A stretch of 5,032 nucleotides of DNA. Source: a virus (lineage: Duplodnaviria; Heunggongvirae; Uroviricota; Caudoviricetes). The translations under genes and the position numbers were made by a program. The stretch spans positions 1-5,032 of the IMG/VR virus record IMGVR_UViG_2698536335_000005; one strand, given 5' to 3'. Positions within the stretch are counted from its first letter, which is position 1, and each line of letters starts with the position of its first letter. Shown piece by piece: positions 1-5,032 of the stretch. Below the pieces are notes generated by a model that searched no databases, was not told the origin of the DNA, and saw only the letters and a list, made by a program, of their open reading frames with translations.

Positions 1-1629
1 GGTGCAGACTTTTTCCACTTCCTGTTGCGCCACTGGTTCAGGCTGTTTCGTTTCTGGCTCGTTTTGTAACGCATTTGGGCTGTTTTGTTCCGCTTTTTGG
101 TAGTTCCGTTCCGATTCATGCTGGTTCTGGTTTACAGAATCGCGGGTCTGGATCCCCTTAACCCATTTCGGATCATTCGGGTCGCTAATCCCTGCAACAA
201 ATTCTCCGCGAGAGGCAGCAAGCAACTTATCGGCGTCAGGCTGGCTGATATTGGCTGCCTGCATAATTTTGTTTACTTCGTCAGCGGTAACTTTTACCGG
301 CTCTGGTTGTGCGGTCGTGTCAGATGCACCAGTATTTTGTTGTGAACCTGAGTATGTACTGTTTTTGCGGGCGAAATATTCTTCTTTCGTGATTTCAGTA
401 GCCCCGGCAGCCAGTGCCTTATCCAGACCAGAAAGTTTGTTTGCGCGACCGTATTTTTCGCCATCCTTGTCGGTGAAGAGGAAGTAGAACGGCCCCTCAC
501 GCTCTACAGATGGTTCGACTTCCACTTTGCATTCGGTTTTTTCGTTGTCCGGAATTGCCGTTTCCACTGCATCAGTTTCTGGTACTGGCGACGAGAGAGT
601 ATCAGTTGCGCTCTGATTTGTTCCTTCATCTTCAAACACGCCCTTTGTAGTCAGGTATTCAGTAATGTATTTGTTCAGTGCCACAGGGTCTTTGTGAATG
701 TCGATCGGACGTTCACGGACAAGGCCAAAAATAGTCTGGCGGTCGTAGCGAAGGGCATCAGGCTGTTTGCGCATTGATGAGTTGTCGATAACTTCATTTT
801 TTGCCCAGCGATGGATGCTGCCGTCAATGTTTCCGGCATCCACATCACCAGGCCAGAGAGCGTAGGCCAGTTCGTCATCCAGTGTTTTCCATGTCTGCTT
901 GTATTCGCGATGAATGGCAGCAATGACCAGGCTGATTTTTCCTGTTGAATTTTCAGTGTGCTGTTGATTGACTCTGGCGCGGGCGAGATCAACAACAGAC
1001 GTGTATTTTCCGGTTTCCTTGCGTTCACCTTCGCGACGTTTTTTCCAGATGCGCATCTCTGCCTGAATTTCGGGCCATTTGGCACCAGGCTTACATTTAT
1101 GCTTAACCCACCCGATGGCATGCAGCTTAAGCTCCGGATACATGGCGTTAACTTCTGGCATTTTCATCAACGCTTCAACGATATGTCCGTTGAATGTTGC
1201 CATGTCTTCCTGCAACAATTCCTGTGCGCTAATAACCATATCAACGGTGATGTTTTCACATGTGTCGAACTTAACCATGAGAGCGTTCTGTACTTCAGGG
1301 GCCAGCTTGTCAAAAGTGACGTTCATCAGATCGGATTCAGTCTCAACCGGGACAAAAGAAGCAGAATCCTCATCCCAGCGGTTTTCCTGCATATATTCAG
1401 CATCCCATGAATCGAGGGCAGGGCGGGGTATGCCAGGTTTATCCTCGCAGATAATAAATTTATAAGCGCAGTCCTGAGCAGCCGGATAATGTTCCAGGAA
1501 TTGCCAGTGAAATTTTGCTCGAGCACGGCGTTCGTCGCCAGCTTCAATAGCTGTGGCTACAGCCACAGCGCCTTCTTCCCTTGTTGCCAGTTCGTCAGGA
1601 ATGGCGGCGCAAATAAAGACTTTACTCAT
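1..1629 (-). CDS. recE: RecE-like exodeoxyribonuclease VIII, N-terminal 543 codons; 3' end lies beyond the window start
   Basis: ATG at 1629..1627 (MSKVFICAAIPDELATREEG...) is preceded by GAGG 10 nt upstream and an in-frame TAA just upstream. The frame is open to position 1; I spot-checked it by hand at 1-60, 121-240, 301-360, 481-540, 601-660, 841-900, 1201-1260 and 1601-1629. The ORF track omits it, presumably because it has no stop in the window. The stretch PDADKLLAASRGEFVAGISDPNDPKWVKGIQTRD (about 121-240) matches my recollection of the E. coli RecE middle region, and an acidic Pro/Glu/Gln-rich linker (TAQPEPVKV, ETKQPEPVAQQEVEKV) fits RecE. Position at the distal end of the early-left operon is as expected for a recombination module. 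Confidence 0.75.
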   Translation of the reverse strand, partial: MSKVFICAAIPDELATREEGAVAVATAIEAGDERRARAKFHWQFLEHYPAAQDCAYKFIICEDKPGIPRPALDSWDAEYMQENRWDEDSASFVPVETESDLMNVTFDKLAPEVQNALMVKFDTCENITVDMVISAQELLQEDMATFNGHIVEALMKMPEVNAMYPELKLHAIGWVKHKCKPGAKWPEIQAEMRIWKKRREGERKETGKYTSVVDLARARVNQQHTENSTGKISLVIAAIHREYKQTWKTLDDELAYALWPGDVDAGNIDGSIHRWAKNEVIDNSSMRKQPDALRYDRQTIFGLVRERPIDIHKDPVALNKYITEYLTTKGVFEDEGTNQSATDTLSSPVPETDAVETAIPDNEKTECKVEVEPSVEREGPFYFLFTDKDGEKYGRANKLSGLDKALAAGATEITKEEYFARKNSTYSGSQQNTGASDTTAQPEPVKVTADEVNKIMQAANISQPDADKLLAASRGEFVAGISDPNDPKWVKGIQTRDSVNQNQHESERNYQKAEQNSPNALQNEPETKQPEPVAQQEVEKVCT

Positions 1630-1724
1630 TTTGTTTTAACCTCATGACAGATTTCAAGGTGAACGAATCCCTGCCATTGCTGGCATTTTTAATCCGTTGG
1701 TATGGTGTTAATATGGCTGGAGGG

Positions 1725-1913
1725 TTATCCAGCCGGTGTTTCGTTATTCAGGTACAGCGATACTTTTTTTAGCGGGAGGCATTCACCAGAAATTTTTTGC
1801 TCGTCTCTTGCCTGGAGGCAGGATTCTTTACTTGCATAAATTCCGGTAATCACATTCTGTGATTCACCCGTTATAAGAAAAACCGTCATCATCAGTGCAA
1901 ATGCTGAAGTCAT
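1725..1913 (-). CDS. ydfD: YdfD-like small membrane (lysis-type) protein, 62 aa
   Basis: ORF-track ORF MTSAFALMMTVFLITGESQ... with a hydrophobic N-terminal segment. Its ATG (1913..1911) overlaps the dicB stop as ATGA, and GGAG lies 7 nt upstream. Size and position immediately after dicB match ydfD of the Qin dicB operon (63 aa). The symbol is assigned by synteny and size, not by recognised sequence. Confidence 0.6.
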   Translation of the reverse strand: MTSAFALMMTVFLITGESQNVITGIYASKESCLQARDEQKISGECLPLKKVSLYLNNETPAG

Positions 1914-2098
1914 TGACGTTCTCCGAAAATACCAAGTTCAAGAAGAGCAATTCGGGAAAGTATGGAATTATCATTGAGCAGATAAGGCTCATATTTCCTC
2001 ATATTAATGGCATCTTCAGTAAACTCCCGGTTACTGAGCAGAACACCAATATCAAAACAACCTTCAGACGTATTAACGTTTGGTAATAACGTTTCCAT
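1910..2098 (-). CDS. dicB: cell division inhibitor DicB (MinC-activating), 62 aa
   Basis: ORF-track ORF METLLPNVNTSEGCFDIGVLLSNREFTEDAIN...; the N-terminus matches my recollection of E. coli DicB (METLLPNVNTSEGCF...) and the length is exactly 62 aa. GAGGA lies 7 nt upstream of the ATG. It sits about 180 nt downstream of the DicF-like terminator, as in the Qin dicB operon. Confidence 0.85.
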   Translation of the reverse strand: METLLPNVNTSEGCFDIGVLLSNREFTEDAINMRKYEPYLLNDNSILSRIALLELGIFGERQ

Positions 2099-2276
2099 TA
2101 TCGCGTCCTCAACAATGAATTTTGTGATGCAGTGCCTGGTGCCTCCAGGTGACGTTAACCAGTTAACAATTAACGCCGGATTAGTTGATGCTCGTTACGC
2201 CCGTAAAATACCGCCTTACTGCTTTAACTGTTCCGCGTGCGCATAGCCGCATTCACCGCATCACAAAATTCACTTT

Positions 2277-2302
2277 AAAAAGGGCGGATATCCGTTTCCG
2301 CC
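2277..2302 (-). terminator. Rho-independent terminator (DicF 3' end), partial terminator inside the leftward operon
   Basis: On the minus strand a 6-bp GC-rich stem GGCGGA/TCCGCC (plus 2283-2288 and 2297-2302) with an 8-nt loop is followed directly by CUUUUU (plus 2277-2281 is AAAAA). There is no U-tract on the plus-strand side, so it is orientation-specific for leftward transcription. Confidence 0.6.
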
Positions 2303-2316
2303 GAATCACCAGAAAA
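2277..2316 (-). ncRNA. dicF: DicF-like small RNA (ftsZ-targeting family) embedded in the dicB operon
   Basis: Minus-strand RNA reads UUUUCUGGUGAUUCGGCGGAAACGGAUAUCCGCCCUUUUU. The 5' UUUCUGGUGA and the 3' CCGCCCUUUUU terminator match what I recall of E. coli DicF. No ORF is present, and the location (upstream of dicB, downstream of ydfC) is that of dicF. The 5' boundary is approximate because the RNA is processed from a longer transcript. Confidence 0.55.
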
Positions 2317-2617
2317 GTGATAACAGAGGGCGTTGCAGCGGGGTTGTCACTTAAGCGTATGGTCAACCTGACAACCCGGTGTCCTCAGCGGGGAAGGAAT
2401 AACCCCGCCATACTTACCGCCGCGCCATTTCGCGGATTGCCACAACCGGAAGCGCACGGTCGAATTAAATTTAACGACTACCTACAGAGAGACGAACTTC
2501 GCCGTGCGCTTTCGCGTTATGCCCTGACTTTTCAGGGATATATCCTTTTCAGTAAACTGTCAGTGCCGGATTCTTATCCGTGTCCGGCGCACGCACTCTA
2601 CCTCACCTGTGAATAAA

Positions 2618-2992
2618 TTAATGATTAATTGATATTTTGTTGTTTGATTCAACTTTCCCATCGGATGTGTGATGCTTTAAATCACAGGAATTAATACTGC
2701 TTGCTGTAAAATGATTTTCAAGGGGAGCTATTCGAATCCCTTTCTTTTTCATTAACAAGCCAAATCCTTTATTAATGATGTTCATTAATTCCAGGAAGTA
2801 TTTTTCATGTAAATTCTGGTTATCAGAGAGCTGCTTCTCTTCGCACAGACCGATAAAGGCACGACGCACGTTACCGGATATAGTATCGATGGTTTCTTTT
2901 TCTACGGTACTCAGGTCAAGAGTCGCCAGTTGGGAACGAACTATATTCGCTGCCATTTCCTGGAATTGCATTGGTAAATCTTTAAATTCCAT
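2618..2992 (-). CDS. hypothetical protein, 124 aa, with AT-rich 3' half; possible moron inserted between ydfC and DicF
   Basis: ORF-track ORF MEFKDLPMQFQEMAANIVRSQLATLDLSTVEKETIDTISGNVRRAFIGLCEEKQ... GAGG lies 6 nt upstream of the ATG at 2992, and the gene is co-oriented with the operon. The 5' part has ordinary GC content, while the 3' roughly 180 nt is very AT-rich and encodes a low-complexity tail (KKKGIRIAPLENHF...NNKISINH). I recognise no family. Confidence 0.5.
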   Translation of the reverse strand: MEFKDLPMQFQEMAANIVRSQLATLDLSTVEKETIDTISGNVRRAFIGLCEEKQLSDNQNLHEKYFLELMNIINKGFGLLMKKKGIRIAPLENHFTASSINSCDLKHHTSDGKVESNNKISINH

Positions 2993-3014
2993 TATTAGCC
3001 TCGTTGGTTAGCTA

Positions 3015-3233
3015 TTAACGCGGGTATGTAATCATTCTGGCAATGCTTAATGCCGCTGCTTTTTCCAGATTAGTGATATCCTGCTCCAGAGCGGACAGAT
3101 TTTCAGCCTGCTTAGCCCTGGCTTCATTGGCCCATTTCAGATCCTGCGCTGCATTAATTTTCTGGTGCATCCACTCATAAAGTTCATCATCGGTATAGTC
3201 TGGCGCGATGATGACGGGTTCTCGTTTCTGCAT
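3015..3233 (-). CDS. ydfC: YdfC-like small protein, 72 aa
   Basis: ORF-track ORF MQKREPVIIAPDYTDDELYEWMHQKINAAQDLKWANEARAKQ... with GAGGAA 6 nt upstream of the ATG. Length (72 aa) and the 29-nt gap after the preceding ydfB-like ORF match the Qin ydfA-ydfB-ydfC arrangement as I recall it. Symbol by synteny and size. Confidence 0.65.
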   Translation of the reverse strand: MQKREPVIIAPDYTDDELYEWMHQKINAAQDLKWANEARAKQAENLSALEQDITNLEKAAALSIARMITYPR

Positions 3234-3262
3234 ACTGATTCCTCGCGGTGCTGTTTCGCTTA

Positions 3263-3391
3263 TCAGCCGTTAGATTTTGCCGAACTGGAAAGCGCCTGTT
3301 TAAATTCGTTGAAGCTGAGAGCTTCTTCGCCTTCGGCAAGACCTTCGAAGTATTCTTCGTAAGCCTTTTCCATGATTGTGTCGAAATCCAT
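3263..3391 (-). CDS. ydfB: YdfB-like small acidic protein, 42 aa (below the ORF-track size cutoff)
   Basis: Hand translation of the minus strand: ATG at 3391..3389, MDFDTIMEKAYEEYFEGLAEGEEALSFNEFKQALSSSAKSNG, stop TGA at 3265..3263. AGGTGA lies 5-6 nt upstream, and the ATG is 1 nt after the ydfA-like stop (TGAtATG), indicating translational coupling. The 42-aa length matches Qin ydfB. Confidence 0.55.
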   Translation of the reverse strand: MDFDTIMEKAYEEYFEGLAEGEEALSFNEFKQALSSSAKSNG

Positions 3392-3392
3392 A

Positions 3393-3548
3393 TCACTCAC
3401 CTGAGTTTCTTTCCAGCCAGCGACGGGCACCATTTTCGGTTTTAAACGTTTTGCTTTTGGTATACGTCATCGCGGTGAACGTACCGTCCTGGTTGGGGAA
3501 CACGCCACATACCAGAGATTCGCTGTTGCCAAGATCGATAGTATCCAT
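3393..3548 (-). CDS. ydfA: YdfA-like small protein, 51 aa; alternative upstream start at 3629 would give 78 aa
   Basis: The ORF-track ORF 3393..3629 is 78 aa, but the internal ATG at 3548..3546 (MDTIDLGNSESLVCGVFPNQDGTF...) has GAGG 5 nt upstream and yields exactly 51 aa, the Qin ydfA length. The 3629 start has GAGG about 9 nt upstream and cannot be excluded from sequence alone. Confidence 0.6.
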   Translation of the reverse strand: MDTIDLGNSESLVCGVFPNQDGTFTAMTYTKSKTFKTENGARRWLERNSGE

Positions 3549-3730
3549 GCTGACCTCATTTCCCCTTAACGCCGGGGTAGCGGAACAAAAACCTGCTGCA
3601 TAGTTATTAAAGTTGAACCCTGCCGTCATGTTCTTACGCCTCGGGCTGGCTACTTAACCCCTGACCACTGCCTGGTAACTCGAAGTATTGCCCTGCATTC
3701 TGTGGGGCGGGGTGGGTTGGTATGAAAAGA

Positions 3731-3759
3731 AGGATACCCATAGGTATTTAAAAAGTAAA
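3731..3759 (-). promoter_or_regulatory. candidate sigma70 promoter for the leftward operon (pL/pdicB-like)
   Basis: On the minus strand: -35 TTTACT (plus 3754-3759), 17-nt spacer, -10 TATCCT (plus 3731-3736). The predicted start near 3723-3725 leaves a leader of roughly 95 to 175 nt depending on the ydfA start. Both flanking operator copies overlap the -35 side and the spacer/-10. Confidence 0.4.
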
Positions 3760-3771
3760 TACCCATGGGTA
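3735..3771. promoter_or_regulatory. OL-like operator pair: TACCCATAGGTA (3735-3746) and perfect palindrome TACCCATGGGTA (3760-3771)
   Basis: Two 12-bp dyad-symmetric sites with centres about 25 bp apart overlap the leftward promoter. The same motif recurs in the repressor/cro intergenic region. Confidence 0.55.
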
Positions 3772-3813
3772 AATTTTTGCGGTGTCTTAACTGGTGACTA
3801 GTTGTTTGGTGAG

Positions 3814-4233
3814 CTATGATGCGTTTTGTGCTTTCTTTTTACGGATTTCTTCGTAGATCATATTGTAATACTGTTTTTTCTCTTCAAGAGTTTTTAATAA
3901 TTTATCCGCTTCACTTTCTGGCAGTTCGTCTAAGAGATCTAAAAAAATACGTTGTCGTGGCGTTAGAACCCTTGTTTCATAACTGGAGGCTGTGTTCGTT
4001 GATGATGAAACGATACCATCCATCCATCCCCGGGGTAACCCAAAGGACTCTTCGATAATCTCCACCATATCATCAGCGATCCGTTTTTTTCCCTTTTTCC
4101 CCTCTGGGTACAACATTCTTGATACATAAGAAGGCTCGCGCCCGATCTTTCTGGCCACGTTAACCGCTTTACCATCGCATTTCTCATCACGAATTTTGAT
4201 GAGTTGCTGTCGTCTAAATTCATATTTGTCCAT
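3814..4233 (-). CDS. prophage immunity repressor, XRE/cI-type N-terminal HTH, 139 aa, no LexA-like peptidase domain
   Basis: ORF-track ORF MDKYEFRRQQLIKIRDEKCDGKAVNVARKIGREPSYVSRMLYPEG... with an HTH-like segment near residues 20-40. It is divergent from the cro-like gene and co-oriented with the leftward operon, which is the cI/DicA/RacR position. At 139 aa it is too short for an S24 autocleavage domain. No SD precedes the ATG, consistent with a leaderless transcript. Confidence 0.75.
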   Translation of the reverse strand: MDKYEFRRQQLIKIRDEKCDGKAVNVARKIGREPSYVSRMLYPEGKKGKKRIADDMVEIIEESFGLPRGWMDGIVSSSTNTASSYETRVLTPRQRIFLDLLDELPESEADKLLKTLEEKKQYYNMIYEEIRKKKAQNAS

Positions 4234-4304
4234 AGGTAAATAATAGATGCGATTACCGCAAGGTAAACAACCTGTGGGTATTGACTTTTGTTTACCTGTG
4301 GGTA
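4227..4304. promoter_or_regulatory. OR-like tripartite operator: TGTCCATAGGTA (4227-4238), AACCTGTGGGTA (4269-4280), TACCTGTGGGTA (4293-4304)
   Basis: Three copies of the OL motif (9-10 of 12 matches to TACCCATGGGTA) lie between the divergent repressor and cro-like genes. The 4227-4238 copy overlaps the repressor start codon. The other two flank and overlap the rightward -35 and -10. Confidence 0.5.
4240..4267 (-). promoter_or_regulatory. candidate pRM-like promoter producing a leaderless repressor mRNA
   Basis: On the minus strand: -35 TTTACC (plus 4262-4267), 16-nt spacer, -10 TATTAT (plus 4240-4245). The -10 ends 6 nt before the repressor ATG at 4233, so the predicted start falls at or next to the ATG, and no SD is present. 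Confidence 0.4.
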
Positions 4305-4308
4305 TTCT
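4282..4308 (+). promoter_or_regulatory. candidate pR-like promoter for the cro-like/ydaT operon
   Basis: -35 TTGACT at 4282-4287. The best -10 is TATTCT at 4303-4308 with a short 15-nt spacer, so the -10 assignment is uncertain. It lies between and over the two right-hand operator copies, about 25 nt upstream of the ydaS-like RBS. Confidence 0.35.
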
Positions 4309-4333
4309 TTGCTGTGTTTACTAAGGAGTAGCT

Positions 4334-4615
4334 ATGGAAGAATTAAGAATATTTCTCAATTCTCTTTCGTCAGATGAACAGCGTATGTTTGCATGCGAGT
4401 GTGGTACCAGCATCGGTTATCTAAGAAAGGCATTGAGTAAAGGTCAAGTGTTAGGGGCATCGTTATGTGTCCTTATTGAGCGAGCCAGTAATGGTGAAGT
4501 TACACGTCAGCAACTAAGGCCTTTTGATTGGATGAATATTTGGCCCGAGCTGGAAGATACCAAAACGTTAACACAACCACTTTCTAGGAGCTTGATTCAT
4601 GAAAATCAAGCATGA
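4334..4615 (+). CDS. ydaS: Cro-like HTH regulator, YdaS family, 93 aa
   Basis: ORF-track ORF MEELRIFLNSLSSDEQRMFACECGTSIGYLRKALSKGQVLGASLCVLIERASNGEVTRQQLRPFDWMNIWPELED... AAGGAG lies 5 nt upstream of the ATG. The motif IERASNGEVTRQQLRP...WPEL resembles the YdaS/Cro family as I recall it. It is divergent from the repressor, in the cro position. Confidence 0.75.
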   Translation: MEELRIFLNSLSSDEQRMFACECGTSIGYLRKALSKGQVLGASLCVLIERASNGEVTRQQLRPFDWMNIWPELEDTKTLTQPLSRSLIHENQA

Positions 4616-5024
4616 ACACATCCGCATGGCGATGAATGCCTGGGCGCGTCCTGATGGCGAAAAAGTTCCAGCAGCTGGAATAACCCAGGCTTATTTTGAG
4701 TTGGGTATGACGTTCCCAGAACTGTATGACGACAGCCATCCGGAAGCCCTGGCTCGCAATACCCAGAAAATTTTCCGCTGGGTAGAGAAAGACACCCCTG
4801 ATGCTGTTGAAAAAATGCAGGCTCTGTTACCGGCGATCGAAAAGGCGATGCCGCCTTTGCTGGTGGCCCGTATGCGCAGCCACAGTTCTGAATATTACCG
4901 TGAGATCGTCGAACGGAGGGATCGGCTGGTGAAGGATGTCGATGATTTTGTTGCGTCAGCGGTTGTTTTGTATGACCAGATGAATCGCGGCGGCCCGGCA
5001 GGGAATGCTGTGGTGATGCACTAA
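4599..5024 (+). CDS. ydaT: YdaT-family protein (cII-position early regulator, toxic on overexpression in Rac), 141 aa
   Basis: ORF-track ORF MKIKHEHIRMAMNAWARPDGEKVPAAGITQAYFELGMTF... AGGAG lies 8 nt upstream of the ATG, and the gene overlaps the 3' end of the ydaS-like gene by 17 nt. The MKIKHEHI start and roughly 140-aa size match my recollection of E. coli YdaT. Stop TAA at 5022-5024. Confidence 0.75.
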   Translation: MKIKHEHIRMAMNAWARPDGEKVPAAGITQAYFELGMTFPELYDDSHPEALARNTQKIFRWVEKDTPDAVEKMQALLPAIEKAMPPLLVARMRSHSSEYYREIVERRDRLVKDVDDFVASAVVLYDQMNRGGPAGNAVVMH

Positions 5025-5032
5025 AAGCACGG

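Follow-up and report, generated by a model that had tools for sequence, protein, structure and literature searches.

A Qin-like dicB operon and immunity switch form an ordinary lambdoid early region with routine mosaicism

Gene content and collinearity with Qin

The window, meaning the whole 5,032-nucleotide (nt) stretch of DNA analyzed here, comprises positions 1 to 5,032 of the IMG/VR virus record IMGVR_UViG_2698536335_000005 and carries the cell-division inhibitor gene dicB together with an exonuclease gene, a prophage repressor gene, a cro-like gene, and ydaT. An earlier note on this DNA had read it as a mosaic prophage in which a dicB/DicF module of the Qin type is joined to a RecE and to YdaS/YdaT immunity genes of the Rac type, Qin and Rac both being cryptic prophages of Escherichia coli K-12. 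The window proteins and DNA were compared one by one with K-12 Qin and Rac (with tblastn for a gene of 124 amino acids, aa), and the RefSeq annotation of the best-matching genome (NZ_CP027355.1) was used alongside translations of the open reading frames (ORFs) to establish the layout. A contiguous and functional-looking lambdoid early and immunity region spans the whole window, as the note had proposed; at the sequence level, the repressor and cro-like genes are divergent, repeated operators are present at the rightward and leftward operator regions (OR and OL), early operons lie on both sides, and the ORF listing and translation show all ORFs inside the window to be intact. The features, including the predicted leftward, rightward, and repressor-maintenance promoters (pL, pR, and pRM), are as follows.

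1–1629, minus strand: 5' part (aa 1–543) of the exonuclease gene, which is about 814–823 aa long and runs off the left end of the window; PHROG 2082 'exonuclease' over 1–543
1725–1913, minus strand: YdfD-like DUF1482 protein, 62 aa; PF07358, 54 bits; 44% identical to K-12 YdfD
1910–2098, minus strand: dicB, cell-division inhibitor, 62 aa; PF05358 and NF049927 both full length; 67% identical to K-12 DicB
2099–2276, minus strand: untranslated dicF-dicB spacer or leader, nearly identical to Qin across most of the alignment and 77% identical to the Rac kilR-kilS spacer
2277–2315, minus strand: short DicF-like allele, 39 nt, with 5' UUUCUGGUGA, a 6-bp GC hairpin (2283–2302), and a U-tail
2316–2617, minus strand: untranslated leader upstream of dicF, equivalent to the 3' untranslated region of Qin ydfC, about 90% or more identical to Qin record 17085–17382
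2618–2992, minus strand: extra 124-aa gene, absent from Qin and Rac; PHROG 6937 (function unknown); GC 0.40
3015–3233, minus strand: ydfC, 72 aa, 98.6% identical to K-12 YdfC
3263–3391, minus strand: ydfB, 42 aa, 97.6% identical to K-12 YdfB
3393–3548, minus strand: ydfA (DUF1391), 51 aa; PF07151, 96 bits; 96% identical to Qin YdfA and 86% to Rac YdaF
3735–3771, no strand: OL, two 12-bp palindromic predicted operators, TACCCATAGGTA and TACCCATGGGTA, at 3735–3746 and 3760–3771, overlapping the inferred pL
3814–4233, minus strand: prophage repressor, 139 aa, with a CI-type helix-turn-helix N-domain and a DicA-like helical C-tail; PHROG 5736 'transcriptional regulator'
4240–4308, no strand: OR region, with predicted operators at 4269–4280 and 4293–4304, pR (−35 at 4281–4286, −10 at 4303–4308), and pRM (−35 at 4267–4262, −10 at 4245–4240)
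4334–4615, plus strand: Cro-like regulator, 93 aa; PDB 8c7k/8co2 'Cro', E = 1e-10; PHROG 35
4592–4609, no strand: YdaT box TTGATTCATGAAAATCAA, an exact and single occurrence of 5'-TTGATT-N6-AATCAA-3', with the ydaT ATG in the spacer
4599–5024, plus strand: ydaT, CII-like tetrameric regulator, 141 aa; PF06254, 37.8 bits against a cut-off of 21; PHROG 163 'CII-like'

The gene order in the window (exonuclease, ydfD-like, dicB, dicF-like, the extra 124-aa gene, ydfC, ydfB, ydfA, repressor, cro-like, ydaT) is collinear with Qin, and the best K-12 match of every left-arm gene lies in Qin with the order kept, the DNA being 85% identical to Qin at 863–2611 and 96.6% identical at 2995–3586. The dicB operon is therefore of the Qin type, as had been claimed, with YdfA, YdfB, and YdfC 96–99% identical to their Qin counterparts and with a DicB that matches its family models over residues 1–62 of 62 (PF05358, 125.5 bits against 27; NF049927, 114.2 bits against 100) in a genomic setting that is syntenic with Qin. 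The ydfD-like gene overlaps the dicB stop codon by 4 nt, likewise in Qin, and ydfA has a possible longer form of 78 aa that starts at 3629. In Qin (Kim) of K-12, where the order is dicC-dicA-ydfA-ydfB-ydfC-dicF-dicB-ydfD-ydfE-intQ, the left arm is arranged as in the window, the dicF and dicB leaders are ∼85–100% identical to those of the window, and a YdaT-like gene, ydfX, also lies beyond the cro-like gene. Qin ydfX (Qin record 15347–15637) is a truncated YdaT homologue with 38% identity over 95 aa to the window YdaT, and because Qin retains this remnant, Qin by itself matches the order of the whole window, apart from a single inserted gene and an exchanged immunity cassette, and the window ydaT needs no Rac origin. 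The two regions differ in that the repressor N-domain and the Cro-like protein of the window are unrelated to DicA and DicC, the window adds the 124-aa gene between ydfC and the dicF leader, its DicB and YdfD are just 67% and 44% identical to those of Qin, and its DicF is a short allele; in addition, the window exonuclease is intact whereas that of Qin is truncated by an IS2 insertion sequence, and the window YdaT is full length. In K-12, ydfX and ydfE (Qin record 18079–18999) are annotated merely as an uncharacterized protein or pseudogene.

The exonuclease had been taken for a Rac-type RecE, a claim that fails on both sequence and domain content. On these comparisons, the window enzyme is assigned to Qin's own type and not to the RecE family, with which it shares only a linker region. 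Over residues 1–257 it shares 96% identity with the ydfE pseudogene of K-12 Qin, while the similarity of Rac RecE to the window exonuclease is limited to aa 290–542 (33% identity). When the full 823-aa homologue of the matching genome is used, the identity to RecE is 39% over aa 262–625 against RecE 278–591, which is the non-catalytic middle of RecE and contains the near-identical stretch LLAASRGEFV.GISDPNDPKWVKGIQTRD. The sole Pfam domain of this full-length homologue in NZ_CP027355.1 is PF16473 (Rv2179c-like, DEDD-type 3'-5' exonuclease) at aa 642–813, beyond the window; neither PF06630 (RecE N-terminal Exonuc_VIII) nor PF12684 (RecE C-terminal PD-(D/E)XK) is found in the 823-aa protein with Pfam, and the control K-12 RecE has PF06630 at aa 2–178 (327 bits) and PF12684 at aa 615–850. 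Similarly, the NCBIfam ExoVIII equivalog NF007259 scores 283.9 bits against a cut-off of 1,269 and is covered only at profile positions 271–602. No recT follows the exonuclease gene in the RefSeq annotation of the matching genome, where the downstream genes encode a DUF4224 protein and an integrase.

K-12 ydfE is consequently an IS2-truncated N-terminal remnant of a PF16473-type exonuclease, and the comparison shows that ydfE and ydfX are what is left in Qin of this exonuclease and a CII analogue of the YdaT type, respectively. Such exonucleases are often annotated as 'exodeoxyribonuclease VIII' or 'RecE', as in the prophage gene of NZ_CP027355.1 (matching-genome record 19185–21656) and many RefSeq/GenBank records. 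The RecE label on the PF16473-type exonuclease looks like a propagated mis-annotation, and the present result corrects a plausible-sounding name but has little significance beyond housekeeping. The window copy differs from NZ_CP027355.1 by a deletion at ∼779–780, where 29 nt are replaced by AG and 9 codons are lost. Phage homologues are likewise 9 residues longer (alignments of 552 aa against 543 in the window).

The immunity switch

The repressor is a domain hybrid of a CI DNA-binding domain and a DicA-like tail, and the earlier note was right both in separating its N-terminus from DicA and in suspecting a hybrid. Its N-terminal ∼75 aa are 64–82% identical to S24 (PF00717)-containing repressors of 221–242 aa (∼53–73% of the query; ∼75% for the DNA-binding domain) and show no similarity to DicA in alignment, while aa 89–134 align pairwise with DicA 84–129 (33% identity, E = 2e-7), and the NCBIfam DicA model NF007257 matches at positions 81–131 only (24.5 bits against a cut-off of 101, E = 1.9e-5). 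The relatives of the repressor are of two kinds, namely close relatives over the full length, of 135–139 aa, in enterobacteria and many phage repressors of 221–242 aa labeled "LexA family / S24 peptidase", which match over the first ∼75 residues only. No Pfam family, and no Peptidase_S24 (PF00717), is found in the window repressor, which ends at aa 139 with two helices; the control relative P0046 has Peptidase_S24 at aa 93–214. An AlphaFold model (predicted local distance difference test, pLDDT, 82) shows four helices in the N-domain, then a disordered linker, and a hairpin of two helices at the C-terminus, and its fold matches are weak but consistent, including Salmonella phage Rep (5d50), XRE and C-proteins, and the lambda repressor, with Rep 5d50 as the best but weak match (E = 3e-3, template modeling score about 0.46).

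As the repressor has no S24 autocleavage domain, induction probably does not proceed via direct RecA-stimulated cleavage, and judged from the protein sequence it is probably indirect. Antirepressor-controlled repressors without S24 (SPC32H Rep, PDB 5d50; Gifsy-type) are similarly short and combine a helix-turn-helix with a helical oligomerization region, but they have no sequence similarity to the window repressor, and no cognate antirepressor was identified for it. A common short CI-type repressor that lacks the autocleavage domain bears on how such prophages are induced.

The operator pattern TACCCAYRGGTA gives six strand-matches at four sites in the window against 0.04 expected, and none of 200 shuffles reaches six; the operators are perfect 12-bp palindromes. 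The predicted pL, read by eye, is TTTACC-17-TAAATA on the minus strand, and the hexamers overlapping OR are TTGACT-16-TATTCT rightward (pR) and TTTACC-16-TATTAT leftward (pRM). The end of the predicted pRM −10 (TATTAT) is 6 nt away from the repressor ATG (4233), and no Shine-Dalgarno sequence is present, which suggests that the repressor mRNA may be leaderless, by analogy with lambda cI and CP-933P PaaR2, for which leaderless mRNA has been shown (PMC8630535).

The earlier note had placed the two rightward genes with Rac ydaS and ydaT, and each assignment holds in part. The 93-aa protein is classed as Cro-like from its position and its similarity to the PDB Cro entries; it has no match to DicC, and it shares just a 28-residue stretch with K-12 YdaS, scoring 25.8 bits against PF15943 (YdaS) over residues 35–66 only, below the cut-off of 30, whereas K-12 YdaS scores 107.7. 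The YdaT is a genuine member of its family, though not of the Rac type: its identity to Rac YdaT is just 31%, against ∼95% to CP-933P YdaT (PDB 8bt1, E = 1e-88; 3c4r, E = 1e-79). The YdaT box in the window agrees exactly with the published operator 5'-TTGATT-N6-AATCAA-3' (PMC9986795; PMC11879457), and the Rac "YdaT-box" ATGATTCATGAAAATCAA at the equivalent position differs by one base (PMC11879457).

If the switch works like those of lambda, Qin DicA/DicC, and CP-933P, the 139-aa repressor, whose pRM transcript is probably leaderless, would bind the 12-bp palindromes at OR and OL and shut off both early promoters, that is, pR, which would drive the cro-like gene, ydaT, and the replication genes, and pL, which would drive ydfA-ydfB-ydfC-orf124-dicF-like-dicB-ydfD-like-exonuclease-xis-int. 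Once repression is lifted, the Cro-like protein and the tetrameric, CII-like YdaT, the latter binding the box at its own start codon, would decide between lysis and lysogeny, and the pL operon would then yield the division inhibitor DicB, a small RNA, and the exonuclease.

Relatives, distribution, and rival explanations

Relative to E. coli 2013C-4991 (NZ_CP027355.1), a Shiga toxin-producing E. coli strain, the window has three substitutions and lacks 27 bp, in frame, within the exonuclease gene. The matching prophage is ∼51 kb long and integrated at serT (1811094–1862113, between tRNA-Ser (serT) and yccA), with the integrase adjoining yccA and tRNA-Ser at the opposite end; no tRNA was found by a scan beside the integrase. 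Inspection of the flanks in this genome, as the note had advised, found the integrase, the tRNA-Ser end, and full replication, lysis, head, and tail modules, comprising a DUF4224 excisionase-like gene, replication genes, hokD, RusA, a Q-region, and lysis, terminase, head, and tail genes. The prophage also carries the type III secretion system effector gene espK, three tRNA genes, and a gene with an antirepressor domain (matching-genome record 39053–39622). Among 5,426 complete E. coli genomes, 4,864 match some part of the window and 382 contain at least 80% of it in one place, and 822 have the repressor-OR-cro cassette as a conserved unit, with ≥99% identity in 704 of them.

Whether the gene combination is special can be judged from its relatives. 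Among 80 IMG/VR loci with canonical dicF, this exonuclease type is present in 69 and a YdaT homologue in 57, while the exact repressor/Cro cassette is found in 12–13 and the 124-aa gene in 18, the absences being partly due to truncated loci. The isolated phage Tritos (OV696610) has the order int-xis-exo-ydfD-dicB-DicF-ydfC-ydfB-ydfA-CI-Cro-YdaT-O, with an exonuclease 89%, YdfABC 96–99%, and a YdaT 87% identical to those of the window; it differs in a CI that is only 39% identical, in having no homologue of the 93-aa Cro-like protein, in a canonical DicF, and in having no 124-aa gene. The isolated phages Evi, mEp460_ev081, HannyBb, and PhiR42_1 also share large parts of the window. The combination of exonuclease, dicB, and YdaT is thus the norm for this phage group, in essence the outcome that the note had named as its refutation, and with the left arm following Qin in order when checked against K-12 Rac and Qin, the supposed Qin-Rac combination loses its special character. 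Very probably, the window holds the standard leftward early operon and immunity switch of a common lambdoid prophage and not a Rac-Qin fusion. The prophage would belong to the dicBF-bearing group, whose members include Qin-like prophages, the CP-933 prophages, and Tritos, mEp460, and similar phages. The mosaicism that the note described is real, since the repressor/Cro cassette is swapped and one gene is inserted relative to Qin and short Rac-like patches are present, but it is routine, and the region is of an already known kind of lambdoid early region.

In 2016, it was stated that no sequenced phage genome carried DicB or DicF (PMC5069750). Both are now found in isolated phages (OV696610 (Tritos), LR597641, LR597642, PP925841, and PV340562), and that statement is therefore out of date.

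Several observations weigh against the reading of the window as an ordinary Qin-like early region. Rac-like DNA patches with 77–97% identity amount to ∼625 bp in the window, and outside it a YdaV-like protein is 80% identical to Rac YdaV, so that some Rac-related module ancestry is real. The DicF-like allele scores too low for the Rfam model and could be without function. The promoter scan is unenriched (5 sites against a shuffled mean of 6.1), and the promoters are consequently assigned by position only. A consensus LexA box (CTGT-N8-ACAG) does not occur in the 27 kb of prophage scanned and was found only at sulA, and an SOS-controlled antirepressor, considered as a route of induction, is accordingly not shown. 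Finally, with a frameshift in its portal gene and an IS66 within the tail-fiber region, the host prophage may not produce particles.

The Rac-like traces are normal lambdoid modular exchange. The untranslated leader between OL/pL and ydfA is at 3561–3724 87% identical to the Rac ydaG-racR spacer and not to Qin, and as the flanking ydfA is Qin-like, a mosaic joint lies near 3587; outside the window, HokD shares 98% and a YdfU-like protein 86% identity with the Qin counterpart. A put/nut-like element in the pL leader was also considered and is unsupported, given that the predicted RNA stability of 3549–3735 is not unusual (z = +1.34).

A recombinant or ancestor-like form, with the Qin dicB/DicF module joined to Rac RecE and Rac ydaS/ydaT, would account for this leader and for the YdaV-like protein, and Rac (recT-recE-racC-ydaE-kilR-kilS-sieB-ydaF-ydaG-racR-ydaS-ydaT) does have a lambdoid layout parallel to that of the window, a YdaF 86% identical to the window YdfA, a RecE whose non-catalytic middle, with its near-identical stretch, is 39% identical to the exonuclease, and a YdaT and YdaT box that are 31% identical and one base different, respectively (PMC11879457). 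The window differs from Rac, however, in its other catalytic exonuclease, with PF16473 present, PF06630 and PF12684 absent, and an N-terminus 96% identical to Qin YdfE; it has no recT and no sieB, carries DicB where Rac has KilR, and has a repressor with no similarity to RacR. Its YdaT is ∼95% identical to the CP-933P type, Qin has its own remnant in YdfX, and the combination is normal in dicF-bearing viral contigs and isolated phages. The recombinant form is already largely refuted and must be considered highly improbable, and the description of the window as an ancestor-like arrangement of the two K-12 cryptic prophages is unwarranted, as the window represents nothing more than a better-preserved phage of the Qin-like kind that has undergone the usual exchange of modules.

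The immunity region could instead belong to the CP-933P (Sp12) type of E. coli O157:H7, with PaaR2, paaA2-parE2, YdaS, and YdaT (Jurenas 2021; Prolic-Kalinsek 2023). dicBF has been placed in CP-933M, O, and P (PMC5069750), and in CP-933P, dicB/kil lies downstream of the repressor with ydaS-ydaT on its right (PMC8630535). The window shares with CP-933P the ∼95% identical YdaT (PDB 8bt1), the exact YdaT box (PMC9986795), a leftward repressor with dicB downstream and cro-like and ydaT genes rightward (PMC8630535), the CI/Cro/CII-analogue logic, and a likely leaderless repressor mRNA (PMC8630535, PMC9986795). It differs in that its repressor is followed by the OL/pL region and then ydfA, with no paaA2-parE2 toxin-antitoxin genes, in that its divergent Cro-like protein matches the nearest solved Cro (8c7k/8co2) at E = 1e-10 only, and in that its cassette is a conserved unit of its own, in 822 genomes and mostly at ≥99% identity; membership of the CP-933P type is thus rated as improbable. 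A decaying cryptic remnant, in which the switch and pL operon are no longer a working phage program and any retention of the genes would serve the host, as has been suggested for Qin dicBF, is also unlikely, although less remote. Such decay would fit the frameshifted portal gene, the IS66, and partial ORFs elsewhere in the prophage, the truncated DicF allele, and the 27-bp deletion in the exonuclease gene, but it agrees poorly with intact window ORFs, operators that are perfect palindromes, an immunity cassette conserved at ≥99% in 704 genomes, and near-identical modules in isolated, plaque-forming phages.

The DicF-like allele, the dicB leaders, and the 124-aa gene

The untranslated stretch between dicB and the 124-aa gene (2099–2617, 519 nt) holds the short DicF-like element, UUUCUGGUGAUUCGGCGGAAACGGAUAUCCGCCCUUUUU. 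In an alignment of the ydfC-dicB spacer, both flanks are nearly identical to Qin and a shorter element stands at the dicF position, so that the DicF of the earlier note is present as a 39-nt allele at the expected place but not as a match to the family model. Whole-window Rfam scans (gathering score and E ≤ 10) returned no DicF, and a search of 71 nt gave 16.6 bits against RF00039 (E = 0.074), below the gathering score of 48, with the K-12 dicF control at 76.7 bits. The short allele retains the first 10 nt (UUUCUGGUGA), the 6-bp GC hairpin with U5 (predicted fold and terminator), and the position between ydfC and dicB. The loop UUUUACUCCGUGACUG of the DicF 3' region, which pairs with the ftsZ ribosome-binding site, is gone and replaced by AACGGAUA, and the element is a net 19 nt shorter; direct inspection of the sequence confirms that the ACUCCG loop and the AAACGUCACC complement are both lost, and the xylR-complementary stretch GGUGACGUUU has become GGUGAUUCGG.

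Balasubramanian et al. (PMC5069750) assign pairing with ftsZ and pykA to the 3' region of DicF and pairing with xylR to its 5' end. The short allele might, as a tentative and rather doubtful possibility, be a functional and naturally re-targeted small RNA (sRNA) with a different target set; the processing context, the first 10 nt, and the Hfq-type terminator are kept while the ftsZ/pykA loop and most of the xylR seed are lost. If so, division inhibition upon induction would rest on DicB alone in this lineage. Duplex predictions for both DicF alleles against the 5' regions of ftsZ, xylR, pykA, and manX were over-extended and gave no useful difference from shuffled controls. Of the 5,426 complete E. 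coli genomes, 43 carry the short allele and 3,969 canonical DicF; the counts in IMG/VR viral contigs are 8 and at least 120, respectively, and one of the species-representative genomes (E. albertii) has the short allele. This allele occurs together with the 124-aa gene in 8 of 9 loci from the viral contigs and E. albertii, that is, wherever the region is present. A rare DicF allele without the ftsZ-pairing loop is of possible specialist interest.

In Rac, the position equivalent to that of DicF, upstream of the gene for the division inhibitor, is taken by the sRNA kilS (K-12 Rac record 7406–7503, minus strand). The terminator stems of kilS (GGCGGCAUCAG...CUGAUGUCCGCC) and DicF are homologous, and the downstream leader is conserved too. 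The sRNA slot of the pL operon seems to host variable, interchangeable sRNAs. The dicF-dicB leader also has a sub-threshold match to the Rfam family STnc100 at 2066–2284 (minus strand; 31.2 bits against a gathering score of 47), with the K-12 Qin control at 34.4 bits (Qin record 17433–17642), which suggests homology to the Salmonella STnc100 locus.

PADLOC gave no defense-system match for any window protein. Between ydfC and the dicF leader, the extra 124-aa gene takes the place of ∼23 nt present in Qin; it lies in a stretch of lower GC content and has no tblastn match in K-12 Qin or Rac, and its product has no match in Pfam, NCBIfam, or PADLOC. A structure model of the protein has a confident three-helix core with no fold match (best E = 1.2). 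The gene is present in 702–932 of the 5,426 complete E. coli genomes, and among its homologues the N-terminal ∼64 aa are conserved while the C-terminal halves are variable.

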